Shown piece after piece: positions 1,617 through 45,425 of a DNA stretch of 45,482 nt. Where the stretch lies: the IMG/VR virus record IMGVR_UViG_3300017978_000301, positions 1 to 45,482 of that record. One strand, 5' to 3'. Position 1 is the first letter of the stretch. Each line of letters starts with the position of its first letter. The notes under the pieces are model-generated. The model was not told where the DNA came from. It saw nothing but the letters and a program-made list of their open reading frames with translations, and made no database searches. This stretch comes from a virus. Lineage: Duplodnaviria; Caudoviricetes. Both the position numbers and the translations under genes were made by a program.

Positions 1617-2261
1617 ATGATTAAAATTTCTGTCACATCTAAGCTTGATGGCATTCGCTCATGGTCTTTACAGGCTTTGGATACATGCCCCGGCTCTGTC
1701 GCTGCGCCCGGTGAGCTGGTGGATGCCTGTAAAGGATGCTATGCCACCACAGGAAATTACAATTATCCTAATGTGAAAGCCCCTCGCGCCTCCAATAAAG
1801 AAGATTGGCAGCGCATAGATTGGGCTGATGACATGGTGGCAGCTCTAGACTCTGATCGCTATTTTCGCTGGTTTGATTCTGGAGATATGTACTCTCTGGG
1901 TTTAGCAGAGAAAATTCTGGAGGTGATGCAGCGCACACCGTGGGTAAAGCACTGGATGCCAACTCGCATGCATAAATTCCCTAAATTTCGCTCAGTGCTG
2001 GCAGCGATGCAAAGCTTAGATAACGTAATGGTGAGATTTTCCTCTGACAGCGTCACAGGCGATTACCTGCGCGGTACTCATGGCAGCGTGATTATTCCTA
2101 CTCCAATTGATGTACAGACAGGCATGCGCCTGTGCGAGGCTTACTCTAAAGCTGGCAAATGCTCTGGCTGTCGCTCATGCTGGGATAAAAAAATCCCTGT
2201 AATTGCATATCCTGCTCATGGTGTGAAGATGGCTAAAGTAATTCGTATTTTGAAAGCATAA
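1617..2261 (+). CDS. GP88-like Cys-rich putative Fe-S/radical-SAM-like protein (allele A)
   Basis: TCPG...CKGCYA, YFRWFDSGD, HWMPTR, VRFSSD, C-terminal C...CSGCRSCW...YPAHG; recalled similarity to the phage gene product 88 family. Confidence 0.7.
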   Translation: MIKISVTSKLDGIRSWSLQALDTCPGSVAAPGELVDACKGCYATTGNYNYPNVKAPRASNKEDWQRIDWADDMVAALDSDRYFRWFDSGDMYSLGLAEKILEVMQRTPWVKHWMPTRMHKFPKFRSVLAAMQSLDNVMVRFSSDSVTGDYLRGTHGSVIIPTPIDVQTGMRLCEAYSKAGKCSGCRSCWDKKIPVIAYPAHGVKMAKVIRILKA

Positions 2262-3388: not shown

Positions 3389-3744
3389 CTCTTAGCTCCA
3401 ATGTGTTTTAGCACTCGTAAGGCAGCTTCTACCTTCCAAGGTTTGGTACTGATTGTATCGGCTATGTTCCACCACTCGTGTACTTGCTTGTACCAAGCGT
3501 TGTCGAAGATTTTGGCTTTTTCTTTTTTCGAGGCTGGGCCAGTGTCCAACCATGTATGACACTTGTAGCAACCCCACACTGACATGCAGTCATCAGCCTT
3601 GAGGCCACGACCTTTGCCATGTATAAGCTCATTACTATGACAGGCAACAGTTGTTGAGCCTTCGTCACCATCGCAGTATGGATGGCATTCCAAGAGGCAT
3701 TTCTGCCCCTGTGCAAGCTTCAGTAGATCAGGATCGCGGTACAT
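3385..3744 (-). CDS. DUF1364/YbcO-like Zn-binding nuclease-fold protein
   Basis: CLLECHPYC...TTVACHSN..HGKGRGLKADD...GCYKCH; start moved to MYRD at 3744. Confidence 0.75.
   Translation of the reverse strand: MYRDPDLLKLAQGQKCLLECHPYCDGDEGSTTVACHSNELIHGKGRGLKADDCMSVWGCYKCHTWLDTGPASKKEKAKIFDNAWYKQVHEWWNIADTISTKPWKVEAALRVLKHIGAKR
3392..3445. repeat. Exact 54-nt repeat of 45429-45482 (right anchor of the duplicated region)
   Basis: ttagctccaatg...ccaaggtttg is identical to the last 54 nt of the window. Confidence 0.97.
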
Positions 3745-23581: not shown

Positions 23582-24640
23582 TTACAACTCCGAAGAAACT
23601 TCAATTGCGCCAGTATTCGTTGTGTATCCTGGTAAGCCAACAGCACTTGAGCCTGCGCCCGTTGTGGTGAAAAGAACCTGAGCAAAATTCACGGTTTGCT
23701 GTTGAATAGCTGAATATGTAAGGTTAGTAGCATCAGCTACTGTGTAGCTGTAAAAACCCAAAGTCCCTGATTTTGTGTAACTCGGATTTGCTCGCATCTC
23801 AACAGGGTTGTTAATCGTCACTACGACACTACCACCACCAGTAAGCCATGACCCCCATAGACTTTTTCCAGCTTTCCAAAAATACCGCTGACACAAAGCC
23901 AACTCAGTACCATACGGGCGGTAGTCAAAGCTCGTTGCTGTTGAGCCTTTTTCTAGTTGAACGCCTGTGATGTAGAAGGTGGCTCCGTTTGTACCCACTA
24001 CGTTCACTTGACCTGTTGGTGCGCGATAGTCATTGCCTGTCCATGCGCCAGCACCGCCAGTCTGTCCAGCGGAAACACTGTATGAAATAAACAAATAAAG
24101 GCCAGCGCCGTTTGTTGCTCCAATCCATGTGCCGCCTGTATCACCGGGAATAGTTGCTGAGACTTGTTGCCAAGTGTTTGCAGATGCAATCGTGTATTGG
24201 AAAACATAACTTCTGTTTCCCGCATCATTTTGAATTGCTCCACCAAATGTGCCAGTAAGACTTGATCGAACCCAAAATGACAATGTGATTGGTTGTGCGT
24301 TTGCAGTTCCCCACATTAAATCGGCAGTGTTGTAGCCCTCAATAGCCTGACGCAAGCTGTAATTTGATGCAGCAGATGTACTTGTGGAGGTTACACCATA
24401 GTAAAAAGAAAAACCTACTGGTGGAGTAACGCTACCTGCATTTTGCTGGACATTAAAACCGCCACCGCCCACGTTACATTTCCAACGATCAAGACCGTAT
24501 GCGTTTGAGGCTGGAGAAGTTTGAACTGCACCTGCATTACGCTGGTCAATCATCATCGCACCGTTGATGATGCGGTTCTTGAAGCCTGTGTACTGAGCCG
24601 CTGAACTTAGCAGCCCTTGGTCTACTTGTGTAAGTGCCAT
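23582..24640 (-). CDS. Tail fibre/RBP with carbohydrate-binding-like domain (paralog 1)
   Basis: GFKNRIINGAMMIDQRNAG...ITGVQLEKGSTATSFDYRPYGTELALCQRY; start moved to MALTQ. Confidence 0.8.
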   Translation of the reverse strand: MALTQVDQGLLSSAAQYTGFKNRIINGAMMIDQRNAGAVQTSPASNAYGLDRWKCNVGGGGFNVQQNAGSVTPPVGFSFYYGVTSTSTSAASNYSLRQAIEGYNTADLMWGTANAQPITLSFWVRSSLTGTFGGAIQNDAGNRSYVFQYTIASANTWQQVSATIPGDTGGTWIGATNGAGLYLFISYSVSAGQTGGAGAWTGNDYRAPTGQVNVVGTNGATFYITGVQLEKGSTATSFDYRPYGTELALCQRYFWKAGKSLWGSWLTGGGSVVVTINNPVEMRANPSYTKSGTLGFYSYTVADATNLTYSAIQQQTVNFAQVLFTTTGAGSSAVGLPGYTTNTGAIEVSSEL

Positions 24641-24642
24641 AT

Positions 24643-24834
24643 TTATTCTCCTTGTGTAGCCAACCACTCTTCAAACTTAGCTTGCTTGGCTGTTTCTTCA
24701 GCCACCTTAGCTAGTCGAGCAGTTTCTTGAATTTGCCATGCGGCATGAGAAGCTTGAGCTTGTGCTTGCTCTTCAATGGTTAGTTCAACTTCAGTTGTTT
24801 CACCAGTAGCAAGGTTGACTTCGATTCGCTTCAT
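24643..24834 (-). CDS. Small tail-associated protein
   Basis: RIEVNLATGETTEVELT motif. Confidence 0.7.
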   Translation of the reverse strand: MKRIEVNLATGETTEVELTIEEQAQAQASHAAWQIQETARLAKVAEETAKQAKFEEWLATQGE

Positions 24835-26556: not shown

Positions 26557-26714
26557 TGTTGCTCCTCTGCTGGCTCAGGGGTGTTCCCCTCTGATAGCCA
26601 TTGTAGATAGTCTGGGTTGGTTTCTGTGCAAGTCAAACGACAAACATTGTCATCATCAATACGGGCAACTATCTGAGGATCATTACCAACTTTTGGAAGA
26701 AGTTTATAAATCAT
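26553..26714 (-). CDS. Tail-fibre chaperone-like peptide (not in ORF track)
   Basis: NPDYLQWLSEGNTPEPAE; paralog of 23408-23581. Confidence 0.75.
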   Translation of the reverse strand: MIYKLLPKVGNDPQIVARIDDDNVCRLTCTETNPDYLQWLSEGNTPEPAEEQQ

Positions 26715-27796
26715 AGTTCAGCACTCCATGCAAGATATGCGGATGAATTTGCAGACCAAAGCATTGAAGGTTGGTTTGAAGTTAATCCAGATGCAACAGT
26801 AAAATTGACAACGGCTGACATATCAGTACTTGTTGAAAATGTTGGAACAGACGAACAAGAAATTTCAGTTTGTTGATGCCGCACTTTATAGTTAGCAGCC
26901 GTACCAGATTGCTCTAATGACGTTGGCCTAGTTCTTAAAGTAACAGGAAAGAACATCTGTCCCGTTGCAACGGTTGGTGCAGAGTTATATCCAACACCAA
27001 ATGGCTGGACATCCCCTGTTGCTTGAATCTTGTAGTAATACCGCTGGCACAAAGCCAACTCAGTCCCGTATGGACGATAGTCAAAACTTGTAGCTACAGT
27101 GCCTTTTTCTAGTTGTACACCAGTGATTTGCCATGTGGCGTTTAACGTAGAAATAATCTGCGTCTGTCCTGTTGCTCCAGCATAGTTAGCACCTGCCCAT
27201 ACTCCAGCAGTGCCAACACGGTTTGGGCCTTCTGCAATAGACCAGTTAATATTTATACCGATACCGTTTGTTGTAAGCCATGTTCCACTTGTATCACCAG
27301 CAATAGTGATTGATTTCTGTTCCCAAGTGTTTGCAGAGCTGATTGTGTAGCTAAACGGGTAGCTTCTATTAAATGCGCTGTTTCTTACCGAGCCACCAAA
27401 AGTGCCAGTAAGACTTGACTTGACCCAAAAAGATAATGTTACTGTTGCCGCACTAGCTGTTCCCCATGCTAGATCAGCGCAGTTCAAACCTTCAACCAAT
27501 TGAGAGAACCCAGAGTATTGGTCATTAGTTACACTTGCATCAGCAGTTGTAACAGTTGCTTTTGCAGAGTTAACAAAACCAGCAGGAGCATCAGAGACTT
27601 GTTGAAGTGTAAAAACACCCTCTGTATTGTCAAATGCCCAAAACCTGTCCATCACATAGTTTTTAGCGTCTGTGTTAATTGTGACACTAGCTCCAGCATT
27701 TCTCTGGTCGATTTGCATCCCGCCGTTGATGATACGGTTCTTAAACCCATAGCCAAGTCCACTGATGGACGAGGTGTCAATTGTGCTGATTGCCAT
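26711..27796 (-). CDS. Tail fibre/RBP (paralog 2)
   Basis: Same conserved blocks as 23582-24640. Confidence 0.8.
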   Translation of the reverse strand: MAISTIDTSSISGLGYGFKNRIINGGMQIDQRNAGASVTINTDAKNYVMDRFWAFDNTEGVFTLQQVSDAPAGFVNSAKATVTTADASVTNDQYSGFSQLVEGLNCADLAWGTASAATVTLSFWVKSSLTGTFGGSVRNSAFNRSYPFSYTISSANTWEQKSITIAGDTSGTWLTTNGIGININWSIAEGPNRVGTAGVWAGANYAGATGQTQIISTLNATWQITGVQLEKGTVATSFDYRPYGTELALCQRYYYKIQATGDVQPFGVGYNSAPTVATGQMFFPVTLRTRPTSLEQSGTAANYKVRHQQTEISCSSVPTFSTSTDMSAVVNFTVASGLTSNQPSMLWSANSSAYLAWSAEL

Positions 27797-37864: not shown

Positions 37865-39457
37865 TCAAATCCTTTGGACCTTTCCCTCTAGGGGAGTAAA
37901 CCGTTTCGCGGCAAATGTATTAGCACGGCTAACAACTGATTCACCATGACCTTGGATCAATGCAAGGATTCCTATCCGTGCGCTATCAATGTGGTCATCT
38001 TTACCCGTGAATTTACCATGATCATCAATGGCATAGTTGCGAGCTTCGTCAAGAAACGCTTTACAGCTCTCGTTAATCAAGAACGTACCGCGCTCCATAC
38101 TTAGACGCATTATATTGATTCCGTAGGCAATGTGGTTTGTTACCTTGCCTTGGTCATTTGGCGGGTTAAGGATTGCGCCCTGAATGCAGTTAAGACCGTA
38201 CGAGTCTTCGAATACTTCCCGAACAGATTGTTCTGTGAGTGTGTAACGACCCGCTGTACCACCATCATGAGGAAGGGCGATTGGAACGCCTTTCGATTCT
38301 TTATCAAGCAGATAATGAACATATTCGTCAGGAGTCTCGCCATTTGGGATGGTGATTTGCCTGTGGAGGTAGATGACCTCTTGCACCGGGTCACGGAACA
38401 AGAAGGAGATAACTGTCGGGTCATTTTTGATTCCCAAGTCAAAGCTAATCAGGCGTTCAAACTTCTCTTCTTTACGAAGGTCAATGTCCACAGCCTTGTA
38501 GATAGGCCATTCCAGCAATGGAAACACCACGCCTTTGCCAACCATAGGAATACCGTTGATACGGCACTCACGTTCCCAAGGCATAAAGTCTCGACTGAGC
38601 TGTTCACGTTCTTCTTTGGAGAAAAACGGCTCACCCCATTCGTTTTCGTATGGAATGTCATCCCAAGTCACCCGCACATGCGAGTAGCCTTCAATTTGAT
38701 CCCAAAACTTACGCACCAGACCTGACAAACCCTTTAGCGGGGTGAACGAGCAGATAACCTGTCCGTTTCGAGCTGCTGTACGTACAACAAGTTCTGAAAA
38801 AGTTTCATCTGGTGGCTGTTCATCAAGCACAACCAAGTCAAGCTCGAAACCTTGGAGGTGGCGAACCTGTTGTGTGTAGTTGGAGAAATAAAGCTTGGAC
38901 TTTCCACCACTAACGTGCCAGATTTCGATTGAGAGGACGTTGGCTCCATCGGATCGGTAGGACTTGTCATCAATACACTCCCTTGGGATTGAACCTGTGC
39001 CAAGTTTATACGTTTGCTTGATGTCATCGCAGCCAAGAAGCTTTGATTGCAAAGTCTTAGCCACCTGCTCCCAAGATTCACCAGCAGCCATAGCCACAAT
39101 AGGTTTATCCCAAGTCTTACCCTTCCAATCAGGAGGATAGCGACCTGTCAGGTGATAGGCAGTCTCATAGGTAGACGCAATGGTCTTACCAGCACGGTTG
39201 GCAGCAATCATGCCCCTACGAGCAAAGTGAGCGCCTGTCTCAAAGAATTTCTTTTGGTACTCAAAGGGTCGGAACCATTTGAGCTGATTGAATTGCATCT
39301 CATGGGCCAACTTGACCCGTGCAACCATCATCTTCTTTTTCTGTTCATCAGAAAGAGCGTTGGCGGCTTTTTTACCCCCTGCCAGTTTGACAAGGTACTT
39401 TAAAGCTCGGTCTTTGTAGATTGGCTGGATGTAATCACTAGCTTCACTTTTTGCCAT
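37865..39457 (-). CDS. terL: Terminase large subunit
   Basis: AANRAGKT Walker A, LVVLDEQP Walker B, SFTPLKG, FDLG..DPT, DDHIDSAR. Confidence 0.95.
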   Translation of the reverse strand: MAKSEASDYIQPIYKDRALKYLVKLAGGKKAANALSDEQKKKMMVARVKLAHEMQFNQLKWFRPFEYQKKFFETGAHFARRGMIAANRAGKTIASTYETAYHLTGRYPPDWKGKTWDKPIVAMAAGESWEQVAKTLQSKLLGCDDIKQTYKLGTGSIPRECIDDKSYRSDGANVLSIEIWHVSGGKSKLYFSNYTQQVRHLQGFELDLVVLDEQPPDETFSELVVRTAARNGQVICSFTPLKGLSGLVRKFWDQIEGYSHVRVTWDDIPYENEWGEPFFSKEEREQLSRDFMPWERECRINGIPMVGKGVVFPLLEWPIYKAVDIDLRKEEKFERLISFDLGIKNDPTVISFLFRDPVQEVIYLHRQITIPNGETPDEYVHYLLDKESKGVPIALPHDGGTAGRYTLTEQSVREVFEDSYGLNCIQGAILNPPNDQGKVTNHIAYGINIMRLSMERGTFLINESCKAFLDEARNYAIDDHGKFTGKDDHIDSARIGILALIQGHGESVVSRANTFAAKRFTPLEGKVQRI

Positions 39458-40828: not shown

Positions 40829-41317
40829 TCACACTTTTCGCAAAGAGTCTAAAAAGTCATCCATAGCACCCTCAGCCGAGACATCTTCATCCTTGTTCAC
40901 GTTCTGAATGTGTTCAATAGAGATGATAGGCGCACGGGAAGATTCAAAAGCAGCCAGCTTGTCAGCAATCCTAGCTTTTTCTTTGATGTCTAGCTCGTCA
41001 GAGTTCATAGCCATGATGAGGGTTTCCATAGCTGAGGTCAAAGGACCAAAGCCATTAGCCATAGCCTCTTCGTTGAGCTTGTTAAACGTAGCGCCGTACT
41101 CAGTGACTTTGTTGATGATGGACTTAGGCCGACCAGCGGTGTTACGGTTGGCAGGGTCTGAGAAGCCGCCAGAACGAGGTTCACGGGGAAGCTTGTCGCC
41201 AGTAGCCAGTTTCATGGCTTTCTTCTCTGCACGTTTGGCAGCAGCGTATTCACGGGCCTTGCGTTTAGCCTCATCGGAAGAAACGTGGGAGCCTTCGTCC
41301 CTTATTTTGTCAAACAT
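40829..41317 (-). CDS. terS: Probable terminase small subunit
   Basis: NTAGRPK motif, helical core, upstream of TerL. Confidence 0.6.
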   Translation of the reverse strand: MFDKIRDEGSHVSSDEAKRKAREYAAAKRAEKKAMKLATGDKLPREPRSGGFSDPANRNTAGRPKSIINKVTEYGATFNKLNEEAMANGFGPLTSAMETLIMAMNSDELDIKEKARIADKLAAFESSRAPIISIEHIQNVNKDEDVSAEGAMDDFLDSLRKV

Positions 41318-41850
41318 TTCATAGCCTCTTCAGTACGAATCCAAGCGTAGGAGCCATTGACAGTGAACCCACGCTTCTTGTGAATCTTCATAAACCCATC
41401 GTGGTCAGCACGGATGGATGTTGAGCAAACAACGGGAACGCCCCAAGTATGCGCCCAGAGTATATGTTGGTCAATCATCTCGTTGAGCATACGCACACGG
41501 GTACGTACAGGCAAGCTTAGGTCCATGTGGTGGAACTTGGCGTTGCTGATCTCTTCGTTGGAATAGGTTGTATAACCACCACGGTCAAACCAGCAAAAGC
41601 CAAGTAGTGGGTAAGGAACAACTATTTCCCCATGTTCGTCCATGTAAGCTACTTGAGACATATCTCGGCACACAGCAATGAACTCACGGGACTTATTGAA
41701 CAGTTGTTCAGTGGTCGCAACAGTAACCCTGTGTCGGAACACCTTGCGGTCCCTTTTTAAGATGCCATCAGCCTCATGACCAAAGAAGCTATCCGCCATC
41801 TCAACAATGTCCTCTACGTCATGCAGAGGATGAGCCAATGACCATTCCAT
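41302..41850 (-). CDS. GNAT-fold acetyltransferase-like protein
   Basis: D...I.EM, LLGFCW, WAHTWG..V, F..IHKKRGF pattern. Confidence 0.5.
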   Translation of the reverse strand: MEWSLAHPLHDVEDIVEMADSFFGHEADGILKRDRKVFRHRVTVATTEQLFNKSREFIAVCRDMSQVAYMDEHGEIVVPYPLLGFCWFDRGGYTTYSNEEISNAKFHHMDLSLPVRTRVRMLNEMIDQHILWAHTWGVPVVCSTSIRADHDGFMKIHKKRGFTVNGSYAWIRTEEAMKCLTK

Positions 41851-41851
41851 A

Positions 41852-42217
41852 CTATGCCTCCTCGTATGTCAAAGCAAAGATGTCAGGCTTGCAAGGGTAG
41901 TGTTCACCTTTTACCCCCGTAATGATGAAGTCGCCCGGGCAGACGATGTGCCCACCCTCCAGCGTGTCCACCCATCCGTGGTTGTGCATGATGTCGCCGC
42001 AGTGTTTGCAAGGGGCCTGGCCATCCAGTTCTGGTGTTCTGTATCGGCGCACGACATCACCCTCCCAATCATTGCGCTTGCGCTCTTCAGGAGAGAACGG
42101 ACGCAGCACACCCTTCTCATACCCATGATGGGTTTTGCTGTAATCCATTGGATGATCACCATTCTTGAACCACTGAGTAGCCTCTATCACTACAGGCTTC
42201 TTTCTATACATTCCCAT
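41852..42217 (-). CDS. PGDYG-like phage protein
   Basis: YRKKPVVIEA.QW, TLEG, PGDFIITGVKGEHYPCKPDIF..TYE; start moved to MGMY after AAGGGG SD. Confidence 0.8.
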   Translation of the reverse strand: MGMYRKKPVVIEATQWFKNGDHPMDYSKTHHGYEKGVLRPFSPEERKRNDWEGDVVRRYRTPELDGQAPCKHCGDIMHNHGWVDTLEGGHIVCPGDFIITGVKGEHYPCKPDIFALTYEEA

Positions 42218-42256
42218 ACTATTCCCCTTGCGGAGCAAGCCGCGCATTTTTTTACA
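42202..42256. repeat. Exact copy of 1-55
   Basis: Direct comparison. Confidence 0.97.
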
Positions 42257-42361: not shown

Positions 42362-42464
42362 TAGCTATGTGTAATTTATGTTGTGTGAAAGCTAAGTGGT
42401 ATAGGAATCTTTTTGGAAAAAATTTGGGAATGGGCGAGTGGGCCCTCCCCTCCCGCCCTATAGC

Positions 42465-42503
42465 GCAGTGCTACCCCCTCCCCCCTTTTGGCTGGGTGGT
42501 GCT
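42465..42503. other. Conserved C-rich boundary element (allele B)
   Basis: Identical to 434-472. Confidence 0.45.
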
Positions 42504-42890
42504 TGGTTGATCAAGGGCTTGGCTTGGTGGTGCTGGGGCTTGGTTGGTCTTGTTTAACTGACTGACTGGTCAGTAATTAAGCCTTGGGTAAGGGGACCGA
42601 TCACTTTATTGTTTTAGTCTTGGCCTTATCTTGTCCCCTTGTCTTGTCTCTTATCTATTCCCCTTACTGAAGAGCAACCAATGGCTTGGGGTTTCCTTGT
42701 TCTTATGCGGGTTTCGGGGTGGTTCTATAGTGGCAACCAATTGCTGGAAACCTTGGGCCTTGTCTTGTCTTGTCCCCTTATAGGATTGCAACCAATGGCA
42801 AAGGGTTCTTTTCTTTTCTTTTATATCTTGAATTGGCACTTTTTCAAGTTACTTATAAAAACACTGTCTAACTAATTGCACAAATAATGG

Positions 42891-42928
42891 TTGACACCCT
42901 TGCAAACGTATAAGTTAACCTATACAAT
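42891..42928 (+). promoter_or_regulatory. Sigma70 early promoter (allele B)
   Basis: TTGCAA-17-TACAAT, with an extra TTGACA at 42891; CGTATAAG-TTAA-CCTATACA near-palindrome. Confidence 0.7.
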
Positions 42929-42977
42929 CCACACACCAAACAAACCGTTTGGCATTGCAAACTAGGAATTCAATATC

Positions 42978-43307
42978 ATGCAAACGATCACACAAACCCA
43001 AACCACCGGCAACACCACCATTGCACTGACACCGGACCTTTTCGCCCTTATCGATCACGCCGGTGCGATTGATCAAGAGATAAAAGCCCTTACTAAGCAA
43101 TTAGACCAACTGAAAGACACCATAAAAGCCCAAGGTGCTGGGGACTTTGCCGGTTTCTTGTTCAAGGCCAAGGTGGTGGATATTGCCTCAAGCGATAAGG
43201 TGGATTGGCAAACCATTGCCATGCGCTTTGAACCAAGTTATCAATTAATAGCGGCCCACACTACACAAACCAAGGCAACGCAACGTATTAACTTTGCCAA
43301 GGTCTAA
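42978..43307 (+). CDS. First early protein (allele B homolog of 1006-1305)
   Basis: AGGA SD; shared motifs. Confidence 0.85.
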   Translation: MQTITQTQTTGNTTIALTPDLFALIDHAGAIDQEIKALTKQLDQLKDTIKAQGAGDFAGFLFKAKVVDIASSDKVDWQTIAMRFEPSYQLIAAHTTQTKATQRINFAKV

Positions 43308-43317
43308 GGGGTTCACT

Positions 43318-43413
43318 ATGCAAAACAAACTTTTATCTGTCTTGGGCTTTGCCTTTTCTTTTGTGGTGGCCTTGGTTTGTCTAATGGCCTATTTTGACGT
43401 TTTAACCAAGTAA
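43318..43413 (+). CDS. 31-aa hydrophobic micro-peptide MQNKLLSVLGFAFSFVVALVCLMAYFDVLTK (not in ORF track)
   Basis: TAAGGGG SD; homolog of 1316-1399. Confidence 0.75.
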   Translation: MQNKLLSVLGFAFSFVVALVCLMAYFDVLTK

Positions 43414-43423
43414 GGGGTGGACC

Positions 43424-43729
43424 ATGCCAAACAATGCACAAAACCATAATTTTTCGGGCCGCAAACCAAGCAAGGCCCAAGTATTGAACCAAGCCAAACG
43501 ATTGGCAAACGCTGGGGCCGATTTTGTGGCCCTTACATGGGGTGAAAATTGGATTGACTTACACCAAGACACAAACGGCAATTGGTCCGGCACTGGGTGG
43601 ATCAAGGAAATAGGCGGGGATTGGGTGGCGCGTGAATTGAACCATTGCCCAAGCAAACGATTGGCCCAAGGTTTTGGTGATCCGGTCAAGTTTTTGCGTG
43701 ATCACTTGACAATCATTCACATTGGATAA
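43424..43729 (+). CDS. Hypothetical early protein (WGENWI..., WSGTGWI) with C-terminal IHIG
   Basis: TAAGGGG SD; packed. Confidence 0.8.
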   Translation: MPNNAQNHNFSGRKPSKAQVLNQAKRLANAGADFVALTWGENWIDLHQDTNGNWSGTGWIKEIGGDWVARELNHCPSKRLAQGFGDPVKFLRDHLTIIHIG

Positions 43730-43740
43730 GGGGAAAAGTA

Positions 43741-44439
43741 ATGCAAAGCAATGTAGCGTTGACGTTAAAAAGTGCAAACGTAAAAACCGGCCCGATCCCC
43801 GTTTCAATTACTGGGGCCGATAGTTGCCCCCCAAGTTGCCCCTTTTCCGGTGGTGGATGCTATGCAAAGGGCGGACCACTTGCAATTCATTGGCGCAAAG
43901 TAACCCAAGGGGATCGGGGTTTGCCTTGGTCCGATTTTGTGGCGCAAATTAGCGCTTTGCCGGACAATCAATTGTGGCGACACAATGCAGCCGGTGACTT
44001 GATCGGCGCGGGTGAATCAATCGATCCGGTGGCCTTGGGGCAATTGGTTGCCGCTAACCAAGGGAAAAAGGGTTTTACTTATACGCATAAGACAAACGAC
44101 ACCGCTAATTTCCAATGGATCAGGGCCGCTAATGATTGGGGTTTTACGGTGAACCTTAGCGCTAATGATCTACACCATGCCGATCAATTGGCCGATATTG
44201 GGGCCGGTCCGGTGGTGACTGTCTTACCAATTGACGCGCCACCCAAGCAATTAACACCCAAGGGCCGCACGGTGGTGACTTGTCCGGCAACGTATCGGGA
44301 CAATGTATCGTGCGCCACTTGCAAACTTTGTGCGGTGTCCGATCGATCAACCATTGTGGGTTTTCCGGCGCACGGCAATGCCAAGGCCAAGGTGCAAAAG
44401 GTCTTTTTTGCAAAGGTGGTGGACCATGCCGGAAATTGA
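43741..44439 (+). CDS. Cys-rich putative Fe-S protein, distant relative of the allele A gp88-like protein (possibly DUF7227-like)
   Basis: SCPPSCP...GCYA, WRHNAAGD, YTH, VNLSA, CPA...CATCKLC...GFPAHG. Confidence 0.7.
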   Translation: MQSNVALTLKSANVKTGPIPVSITGADSCPPSCPFSGGGCYAKGGPLAIHWRKVTQGDRGLPWSDFVAQISALPDNQLWRHNAAGDLIGAGESIDPVALGQLVAANQGKKGFTYTHKTNDTANFQWIRAANDWGFTVNLSANDLHHADQLADIGAGPVVTVLPIDAPPKQLTPKGRTVVTCPATYRDNVSCATCKLCAVSDRSTIVGFPAHGNAKAKVQKVFFAKVVDHAGN

Positions 44440-44596
44440 CAATATAGGCGTAATAACCACCCAAGGGCCGGACTTGGTGCGGGTTGCTGGGGTTTCCGGT
44501 GGCTTGGTGTATGCCGTGCCAATTGCCGGACCATATAAGGTGCGGGTTTGTTTGCCGGACCAATTTTGGTGTTTGTTGGATCGTTTGCCGGATTAG
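44426..44596 (+). CDS. 56-aa hypothetical early protein MPEIDNIG...
   Basis: GGTGGACC-ATG leader like that of 43424; ends just before terminator. Confidence 0.6.
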   Translation: MPEIDNIGVITTQGPDLVRVAGVSGGLVYAVPIAGPYKVRVCLPDQFWCLLDRLPD

Positions 44597-44615
44597 TCCG
44601 GACCTTTTGAAAAGT

Positions 44616-44641
44616 GGATCGGTGCGCCGGTCCCTTTTTTT
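44616..44641 (+). terminator. Rho-independent terminator of early cassette B
   Basis: GGATCGG-TGCG-CCGGTCC then C-T7. Confidence 0.75.
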
Positions 44642-44871
44642 AAGGGTTTGGTTAGTAAGCGCTAACTTACATTTTTTGGATCGGATCGGGTTTTGTACTT
44701 GGTCCGGTTTTGGGTTTTGCCGGTGGTTTTGGGTGGTTTGGAAAATCGGGCTTTTGAGGCCCTTTTGTGGTCCACCTATACCTTGGCCTTGGTTATATAT
44801 AAAACCCAGCTTCTAGCCCGTTTTGGCGCGTTTTGGCGGCATTGTGGTGCGGGTGGTTTGGGTGGCTTGGC

Positions 44872-45038
44872 TTCTAGGGGAAATTTTGACTATAAAAACG
44901 CGCGATGCGGGTGCGCGCATGATGTGCGCGGCGGCGCGTGTGCGTGTGCGCATGATGTGCGCGGGTGCGTGTGCGCGTGTGTGTGTGTGTACATGTATGA
45001 CCCCCCCCTCAAAAAAAATGACCCCCCCTTAAAAAAAG
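44872..45038. repeat. Conserved 48-bp core plus RY-alternating tracts and GACn/An repeats (right boundary of cassette B)
   Basis: 44872-44919 identical to 2821-2868; RY runs at 44934-44954 and 44965-44999. Confidence 0.85.
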
Positions 45039-45068: not shown

Positions 45069-45425
45069 TTATTTGAAACGCAAGAGGAACAAAGTTTGGT
45101 TGATCAAGTTGGAAATACTGTCGATCTCATTTTGAATGTCACTGTCTTGCTCCAGCTGAAGACGAGTTTCATTCACATAGTCTTTCAGGGCTTCTAGCTC
45201 TTCTTTGCCTGTGTCTGCTGGCTCGTAGTAGTTGTTGTCAAACCTAAATGTGATGTCGTACTTGCCCATCATCTTCTCAGCCAAGCCATCAACTAGCTCC
45301 GAAAGTTCATCATAAAACTCACCCAATGCTTGGTGTTCGGCATAGCTCTTTGTCTGCCAGTGCAATATGTGAGTGTTGGTCACTGCATGTAGCAGGGTCT
45401 GTAAAAAGTCGGCAGCAGTAGTCAT
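45069..45425 (-). CDS. Ferritin/Dps-like protein, allele B
   Basis: Same length and motifs as 3032-3388 with many substitutions. Confidence 0.8.
   Translation of the reverse strand: MTTAADFLQTLLHAVTNTHILHWQTKSYAEHQALGEFYDELSELVDGLAEKMMGKYDITFRFDNNYYEPADTGKEELEALKDYVNETRLQLEQDSDIQNEIDSISNLINQTLFLLRFK

Follow-up and report, generated by a model that had tools for sequence, protein, structure and literature searches.

The DNA stretch analysed here (IMG/VR record IMGVR_UViG_3300017978_000301, 45,482 nucleotides, hereafter the window) belongs to an uncultured freshwater phage and comprises a 42.2-kb podophage circle together with a second strain's allele of one region. Allele B of this region is a cassette at 42486-44998 that is purged of the trinucleotide GAG/CTC and of about 35 four-letter words on both strands. 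The purge acts on double-stranded DNA, is bounded, takes its own dialect of missing words in each lineage, is swapped between near-identical genome cores and goes with a slot for a predicted enzyme of the GP88 superfamily; the feature is real, conserved and clade-wide. An initial annotation made from the sequence alone had read cassette B as a motif-purged module that enters the host first, escapes its defences and is exchanged to change host range. The bounded purge of both strands, the lineage-specific missing words and the exchange between near-identical cores stood up, and the host-range role found no support. The explanation as a whole, restriction evasion at first entry by a purged cassette, is in our judgement evenly balanced between right and wrong.

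The purge in allele B

Exactly five GAG/CTC occur in 42481-45000 (at 42648, 42672, 43077, 43187 and 44756), as had been counted by eye, and the 75 to 80 then expected at random agree with the 77 given by base composition. Windows of the same 2520 nucleotides (nt) in the genome core hold 33 to 90 (median 58), and 1000 dinucleotide shuffles gave a mean of 27.0 and a minimum of 14. The interval from 43187 to 44756, described as devoid of the word, is with 1569 nt the longest such gap in the window, the runner-up measuring 429 nt. Counts per 2.5 kb also bore out the words named as rare (CAG and GATG/CATC) or abundant (CCAAG/CTTGG, CCGG, GGCC and GATC), as well as the reciprocity with allele A:

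Word: allele B, allele A, core
CAG/CTG: 21, 150, 97
GATG/CATC: 4, 38, 30
CCAAG/CTTGG: 38, 0, 11
CCGG: 25, 2, 1.8
GGCC: 22, 1, 3.9
GATC: 21, 7, 6.2

Allele A (455-2945) has a reciprocal dialect, lacking CCAAG, CAAC, GAAC, GGAC and CGGA and being rich in CAGC and GCGC. The loss of GAG/CTC is real, but GAG is only the most extreme member of a larger group of purged words: in the coding DNA of B, 35 four-letter words, each with an A or T in it, reach less than 55% of the expected count.

A null model that holds the proteins fixed and uses the codon usage of the core was compared with the sense strand of B, where CAG is found 2 times (23.8 expected), CTG 9 (37.7), CTC 1 (18.3) and GAG 1 (7.7). Since words and their complements are both depleted on the sense strand, the bias acts on double-stranded DNA. 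A cause at the level of RNA or codons was rejected, because the bias is strand-symmetric and extends to non-coding DNA. All 29 CAA/CAG codons for Gln are CAA, and only 7 of the 529 codons encode Glu. The 232-aa protein of the cassette does have a single Glu, as claimed, against a mean of 2.3 Glu in its 20 closest homologues and of 5.5-8.6 in sets farther away. Some distant homologues also have 1-3 Glu, so low Glu is supporting evidence only. The terminator stems of A and B, to which the bias was said to reach, are as described.

Layout and boundaries of cassette B

Change points of the composition of B lie at 42452-42784 and 44898-45038. The parts of the region are as follows.

42406-42485: left boundary element, with an A/T tract, GGG, GTGAGTGGGCCC.., and CCAG..TACCCCC; 91% match to allele A at 375-417
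42486-44998: allele B cassette, purged on both strands
42900-42928 (+): match to a sigma-70-like promoter, ahead of the first gene; its CTATACAAT end is common to A
42978-43307 (+): first gene, 109 aa, family F1 (22 of 40 cassettes), without known family
43318-43413 (+): hydrophobic 31-aa peptide; relatives have similar peptides
43424-43729 (+): 101-aa protein, family F2 (14 of 40 cassettes), without known family
43741-44439 (+): DUF7227 protein, GP88 superfamily (Pfam E 5e-89)
44426-44596 (+): 56-aa protein that matches family F3 of relatives, without known family
44616-44640 (+): terminator-like stem GGATCGG..CCGGTCC and T run, spelled in B words
44641-44996: non-coding G/T-rich trailer, still purged, with an RY repeat (lineage-specific) at its end
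44997-45038: right boundary element, doubled GACCCCCCC..AAAAAA, where the purge stops

The purge had been placed between a C-rich site and an RY element. C-tract/A-tract elements do lie at its ends; the RY repeat was rejected as a general boundary because it occurs in only 6 of 40 cassettes, while the C-tract/A-tract element stands at the right end of nearly all. The left element is a candidate genome end or terminase site. The promoter is a consensus match only, as the region holds 3 such matches and 3.2 are expected by chance.

Imperfect inverted repeats pair 42989-43016, at the start of the first gene, with 44713-44740 and 44844-44863 in the G/T-rich trailer; they may simply result from the limited vocabulary. 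The non-coding leader and trailers (42486-42977 and 44597-44998 in B, 2485-2945 in A) are T-rich on the plus strand in both alleles, and the trailers are A-poor. Relatives have short repeats near the cassette ends, for example ACTGAC.. near the left and arrays of GATTAT or AAGTTAGT near the right, which might bind proteins or serve as stop signals for injection. The ribosome-binding sites of B (for example at 43307-43318, 43411-43424 and 43727-43741) and of several relatives have the sequence AAGGG(G), and those of the relative L144 AAGAGG, as if following the dialect.

Cassettes and dialects across the clade

Scans for relatives gave 49 loci with the 182-aa open reading frame (ORF) that adjoins the cassette and 41 with the terminase; 51 loci reach at least 2.5 kb toward the cassette. 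Twelve were dropped as same-contig or same-layout duplicates, and L179 because it lacks a right boundary. Cassette limits for the 38 relatives were set by eye from poly-C runs and left-element matches (L103 runs off its contig), and clustering left 28 dereplicated cassettes. The relatives carry a cassette of 1.6-3.5 kb at the same place, flanked by conserved A-tract/C-tract elements. Of the 38 relatives, 31 have the strict pattern of the left element, and on the right the cassettes end in a CCCCCC..AAAA element. Among 31 relatives, 27 have a Markov change point no more than 200 nt from the right bound, and 17 have one as close to the left bound. A bounded cassette with its own set of missing words, as anticipated by the initial annotation, is present in most relatives.

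Under the protein-preserving null, the word bias exceeds that of a same-sized flank sample in 26 of the 28 dereplicated cassettes, and it is strand-symmetric (median r 0.42 versus 0.12). Words with A before C or G (AG/AC) are down to 0.87 versus 1.00, in 26 of 28, and words made of G and C only or of A and T only are increased. Beyond this common AG/AC trend, each lineage has its own dialect. Cassette B is the most extreme for GAG/CTC (0.07, the next being 0.09, 0.11 and 0.23).

Dialects do not follow the rest of the genome. Unlike cassettes sit on terminase-side flanks that are 95% identical (L116/L125, L129/L130 and L146/L147), and dialect barely correlates either with flank identity (rho 0.08) or with the 182-aa ORF (rho 0.08; pairs 96% identical carry opposite dialects), the pairs in both comparisons not being independent. 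The ORF, at 41305-41850, was therefore rejected as what sets the dialect. The proposal that a cassette swap changes host range found no support, as dialect is uncorrelated with the variable tail genes (rho -0.02 for 190 pairs, likewise not independent, from 20 genomes, a comparison of low power because tails vary fast). The GP88 subfamily was rejected as well: L144 shares the dialect of A (gene r 0.74) with a 17%-identical enzyme, and L144 and L178 have unlike dialects (r 0.05) despite 73%-identical enzymes. L007 is a near copy of A. The enzyme gene is spelled in the dialect of its own cassette, whatever its subfamily. Cassettes L178 and L157 are alike in dialect outside the enzyme gene (0.87) and hardly within it (0.19), as for a recent arrival. 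Because the dialect tracks the cassette and not the enzyme, the flank, the 182-aa ORF or the tail, it belongs to the environment of the cassette, most simply the host. Exchange had been described as wholesale; cassettes do swap on near-identical flanks, but not only wholesale, since GP88 subfamilies unrelated to each other occur in cassettes of the same dialect.

A second tier of avoidance is genome-wide. In the core (3000-42200), CCWGG occurs 2 times and CGWCG not at all, with 62 expected for each. Palindromes that are near-absent from a genome's flanks are mostly gone from its cassette too (46 found versus 200 expected over 48 cases, with zero in 32 of the 48; exceptions include CGCG in L154, 11 versus 4.4), which indicates one genome-wide tier and one restricted to the cassette. 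Other relatives avoid CGCG, CCGG, ACSGT or GGWCC genome-wide instead.

Proteins of the enzyme slot

A GP88 or DUF7227 gene is present in 35 of 40 cassettes, in four subfamilies. The DUF7227 protein of B (298 bits) and the GP88 protein of A (104 bits; 1617-2261, plus strand, Pfam E 1e-29, 22% identical to the B enzyme) both match their profiles above the curated cut-off. Structural neighbours of the B protein include both GP88 and DUF7227, and among viral models Foldseek matched its model to GP88 and Gp37/Gp68-like proteins. The family has 6375 relatives, including proteins of cultured Pseudomonas (among them Pakpunavirus), Acinetobacter and Roseobacter phages and of archaeal viruses, and is uncharacterised; the openly accessible literature searched held no description of GP88 function or of the name DUF7227.

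The DUF7227 motif is C29-x3-C33-x6-C40-Y-A, and the protein has a second Cys cluster. C29, C33, C40 and Y41 are invariant in 89 DUF7227 sequences, and across subfamilies only C29 and C40 are. The canonical motif of radical S-adenosylmethionine (SAM) enzymes is Cx3Cx2C, versus Cx3Cx6C here. The structural model of DUF7227 (predicted local distance difference test score, pLDDT, 90) has Z 6.2 to QueE, viperin and EpeE, below the tool's guide of 8, and a sequence search of the PDB gave no match. GP88/DUF7227 is predicted to adopt a radical-SAM-like partial barrel, with putative radical-SAM chemistry and a putative anti-defence role.

Five cassettes lack GP88: L104, L147, L118, L127 and L154. Four of them carry F8, a 108-aa acidic family (23-26% Asp+Glu; 1159 relatives) that is found only in cassettes without GP88 (L147:3432-3755, minus strand; also L118, L127 and L154), and L104 carries other acidic ORFs. 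Among the 28 dereplicated cassettes, those without GP88 are mostly weakly purged, with scores of 24, 34, 36 and 135 versus 32-359 for the other 24 (p=0.005). The F8 model (pLDDT 93) has its best Z, 5.1, to unrelated chains; no solved-structure match was found, and nothing among the matches listed was informative. F8 is a candidate DNA mimic. Scans of Pfam, PHROGs and NCBIfam yielded no match to the families of Ocr, ArdA or SAM lyase. None of these was among the fold matches listed either, though missing from such a list does not exclude them.

Some cassettes hold a gene resembling that of a DNA methyltransferase (phrog_757) or of a sliding clamp (L140:3451-4038 and L154:4576-5211, both on the minus strand).

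Position relative to the genome ends

Several features suggest that the cassette is the DNA that enters the cell first. It is located upstream of the terminase genes, and its own genes read away from them. The closest cultured terminases (about 33%) are those of LUZ24/PaP3-like phages, which have fixed ends; Bruynoghevirus-type phages such as these carry terminal repeats of 182-184 bp (PMC8540360). In AM24, Bestia, Mithridates, CRP-345, CRP-2 and CRP-603, GP88/DUF7227 genes are no more than 4 kb from the record start, which need not be a virion end; in the Pakpunavirus records listed and in several others they are not near it. Binned at 2 kb, the record starts of AM24 and CRP-345 lack a comparable purge, so the presence of a GP88 gene near an end need not entail one. 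At 39 other GP88 loci the DNA beside the gene has a milder lean of the same kind, GAG being lower than in the far flank in 29 and A+C/G steps in 31. The C-tract/A-tract elements are similar at the two bounds and may delimit a long terminal repeat or a first injection step.

A possible role in evading host defence, and alternatives

In the proposed mechanism, the DNA of the cassette would enter the cell first and be exposed to host defences before the predicted protective protein of the cassette acts, and it would stay free of host restriction targets until this protein disarms the defence. That a host DNA defence acts on the first-entering segment is probable. If so, the agents are somewhat more likely than other candidates to be SAM-dependent adenine systems of the type I, IIG, III or bacteriophage exclusion (BREX) kind with variable specificities; many longer sites with a common core would then reduce to a purge of three to four letters. 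Two published observations fit: with a type I system of motif AGAGN6GTG only sites in the early-injected region matter (PMC12455610), and MmeI-family sites end in A plus C or G and require SAM (PMC2731913). GP88/DUF7227 may be the shield, with chances about equal either way. That it shields by consuming SAM, as does the enzyme of phage T3, which blocks type I and BREX systems (10.1101/2023.02.27.530186), is an analogy that we consider doubtful. A fuller model would combine an entry module delimited by the terminase, missing words that reflect the defence motifs of the last host lineage to which the module adapted, dialect switches by module swap on a shared core, and GP88/DUF7227 as a new radical-SAM-like anti-defence class that makes the purge needless beyond the module; in this complete form it is tentative and rather unlikely.

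A number of results weigh against restriction evasion at first entry. The terminal four-letter words of the MmeI family are barely more depleted than the reversed words (0.81 versus 0.87); an MmeI-specific signal was accordingly rejected, and the class of system is not singled out. On average, palindromes are commoner in cassettes than in flanks (1.23 versus 0.80; higher in 26 of 28). Much of the word enrichment in cassettes is compensation for the purge and vanishes under a null that bars these words (residual sd 1.21 in B), but GCGC, GGCC and CGCG remain high after compensation (z 3-5.5, several cassettes). Simple restriction avoidance predicts neither excess. Some purged words contain neither A nor T (CCGC and CGGC in A-type cassettes and L125). 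Residual GAG sites are shared less than those of any other 3-mer (0.29 of 63, counting pairs with B twice), which a mutational model predicts too. A terminase similarity of about 33% is weak evidence for the type of genome end. The fold match of DUF7227 is middling (Z 6.2, root-mean-square deviation 4.1-4.8, tied with tryptophan synthase alpha at 6.1), and its top Foldseek matches are generic TIM barrels. Finally, the link between GP88 and the purge rests on 4 cassettes, and L154, which lacks GP88, is purged, while L134, which has it, is not.

The first-entering cassette might instead evade a defence that reads words of three to four letters directly, such as a phosphorothioate-linked or other short-motif nuclease. 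We think this improbable. Published phosphorothioate motifs are 3-4 nt long (GAAC/GTTC, GGCC, CCA, CAG, CCGG, GATC and GAGC; PMC11931770), a length that fits without invoking many enzymes. Cassette B is low in CAG, GAGC and GAAC and high in GGCC, CCGG, CCA and GATC, and A reverses CAG, GAGC, GGCC and CCGG, GAAC being low in both. However, the match is post hoc, many four-letter words are extreme in B, most of the approximately 35 purged words are not phosphorothioate motifs, and dnd genes are reported in about 2% of bacteria (PMC11931770).

Alternatively, the phage or its previous host could chemically mark words in the progeny DNA, an unmarked cassette being readable by the host RNA polymerase or safe from a modification-dependent nuclease. 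Such marking would explain a double-strand purge of short words that extends into regulatory sequence, and QueE is among the top matches of the DUF7227 model; but no DpdA, methyltransferase or base-modification gene was found among the 52 window ORFs scanned, and the dialect tracks neither the GP88 subfamily nor the 182-aa ORF. It appears about as improbable as direct reading of short words.

Local context-dependent mutation, arising for instance when a terminal repeat is copied in a special way or when the DNA that enters first is damaged, could also erase words without selection. The sharp bounds, the strand symmetry and the low conservation of residual GAG are all compatible with it. In five DUF7227 genes, synonymous alleles that create GAG/CTC were found in 1 of 26 chances versus 106 of 314 for others (p=0.0007), a lack that fits fast decay as well as selection. 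The purge is kept in relatives at 77-87% identity and 27-51% divergence at four-fold sites. Speaking against mutation, G+C is not reduced (0.49 versus 0.47), near-identical flanks carry opposite dialects, and B and L143 have 4 of 7 residual GAG/CTC sites in common at 32% four-fold divergence, which by our own estimate from small numbers exceeds what a decay rate of about 15-fold would leave. Selection is thus favoured, and a purely mutational origin seems a long shot.

Avoidance of protospacer adjacent motifs (PAMs) of clustered regularly interspaced short palindromic repeat (CRISPR) systems at the injected end is very improbable: PAMs are 2-3 nt long and spacers can favour the entering end, but the purged words number dozens, not one, and AAG, a common type I-E PAM, is enriched in B.

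An assembly artefact, or a mere insert of foreign composition, is negligible as a cause of the purge: the pairing of A and B within one contig is indeed a 55-mer assembly bubble, but the B-type purge recurs in the separate contigs L143, L003, L096 and L181 (77-87% identity to B), four freshwater runs, all from the same study, include contigs with B-like pieces, one of which crosses the left element, and the DUF5856 allele on the same bubble path is diverged and keeps GAG. The artefact was thus rejected for the purge and accepted for the juxtaposition of the alleles, which is that of two strains joined by the assembler and not of two modules of one virion. Positions 1-55 recur exactly at 42202-42256, the last 54 bases of the window match a stretch ending at 3445, and together these show one 42.2-kb circle assembled through two strain alleles. 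As DUF5856 lies on the B path outside the purge, the swapped DNA extends beyond the purge. L193 and L194 give 100% matches to the query and perhaps stem from its own population; the exact 25-mer of the right boundary matched 1 viral contig.

Relation to known systems

Loss of restriction sites in early-injected DNA is already known from Murciavirus (PMC12455610) and T5-like phages (PMC10644984). In Murciavirus and T7-like phages facing a type I system, the need to lack sites is confined to the leading, highly variable region, early proteins have been proposed to protect, and a half-site of the motif contains GAG (PMC12455610). A single 7-base site is lost there, whereas here both strands have lost dozens of three- to four-letter words within bounds that are sharp and conserved, and several dialects coexist. 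The window phage is not one of the Autographiviridae, as no RNA polymerase was found among the ORFs scanned.

The first-step-transfer repeat of T5 and BF23 is likewise a bounded leading block within which alone restriction sites matter (PMC10644984). It measures about 9.7 kb, against 1.6-3.5 kb here; two-step injection and the terminal repeat are demonstrated for T5, while for the window phage they are hypothetical; and the abstract of that account mentions neither a word-level purge nor dialects (PMC10644984).

The gene 0.3 position of T3 and T7 is also one early slot, filled by a SAM-related enzyme (SAMase; 10.1101/2023.02.27.530186) or a small acidic protein (Ocr; PMC12455610). The GP88 superfamily and F8 (23-26% Asp+Glu) may be likened to this pair from sequence and models. 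Unlike the T3 SAMase, GP88/DUF7227 is predicted to be a radical-SAM-like barrel, with no SAM lyase among the matches listed; unlike T7 Ocr, F8 has neither Ocr nor ArdA among its listed matches.

Bruynoghevirus (LUZ24, PaP3, Delta), podophages of about 45 kb with fixed ends, have the closest cultured terminases, although terminase sequence is a poor predictor of packaging (PMC8540360). The clade described here differs in its ERF annealing protein, DUF1376 replication gene and SU10-like portal and capsid. General avoidance of restriction sites by phages resembles the genome-wide purge of palindromes seen here, whereas asymmetric sites are reported to be avoided not uniformly or on one strand (10.64898/2026.09.23.753747), and the purge here is local and on both strands. 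No report of a purge at the level of three-letter words in bounded, interchangeable cassettes was found in the openly accessible literature searched.

The known idea that a phage must keep restriction sites out of its entering end becomes a large and measurable signal, deep enough to alter codon choice, sharp to about 200 bases at the right bound in most relatives and different between near-identical flanks. If the proposed role is correct, sets of missing words could predict host defence motifs for uncultured phages, genome ends could be located from sequence alone, and GP88/DUF7227 would gain a first testable function.

Other features of the window

The window is assigned to a podophage because it encodes SU10-like portal, capsid and adaptor proteins, a terminase, tail fibres, an ERF protein and a DUF1376 replication protein. 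When the DUF1376 protein was used to look for the host, full-length matches reached no more than 43%, the best being in a metagenome-assembled genome of an uncultured betaproteobacterium. An Rfam scan of the window gave no match. The remaining features are as follows.

1617-2261 (+): GP88 protein of allele A
37865-39457 (-): terminase large subunit, about 33% to its nearest cultured relatives (LUZ24/PaP3-like phages)
40829-41317 (-): candidate terminase small subunit, from position only, without family match
42202-42256: opening node of the assembly bubble, a 55-nt exact copy of 1-55
45069-45425 (-): DUF5856 gene, an internal control for the purge

The 182-aa ORF, on the minus strand, is conserved in all relatives and has 763 homologues and a variable internal loop; it looks GNAT-like by eye only, with no family or structure match in the searches. 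Two tail-fibre paralogues (23582-24667 and 26711-27796) lie about 3.15 kb apart. Tail modules vary strongly among 20 relatives, and L143 and L148, both with DUF7227 and GAG-poor, have four tail families in common.

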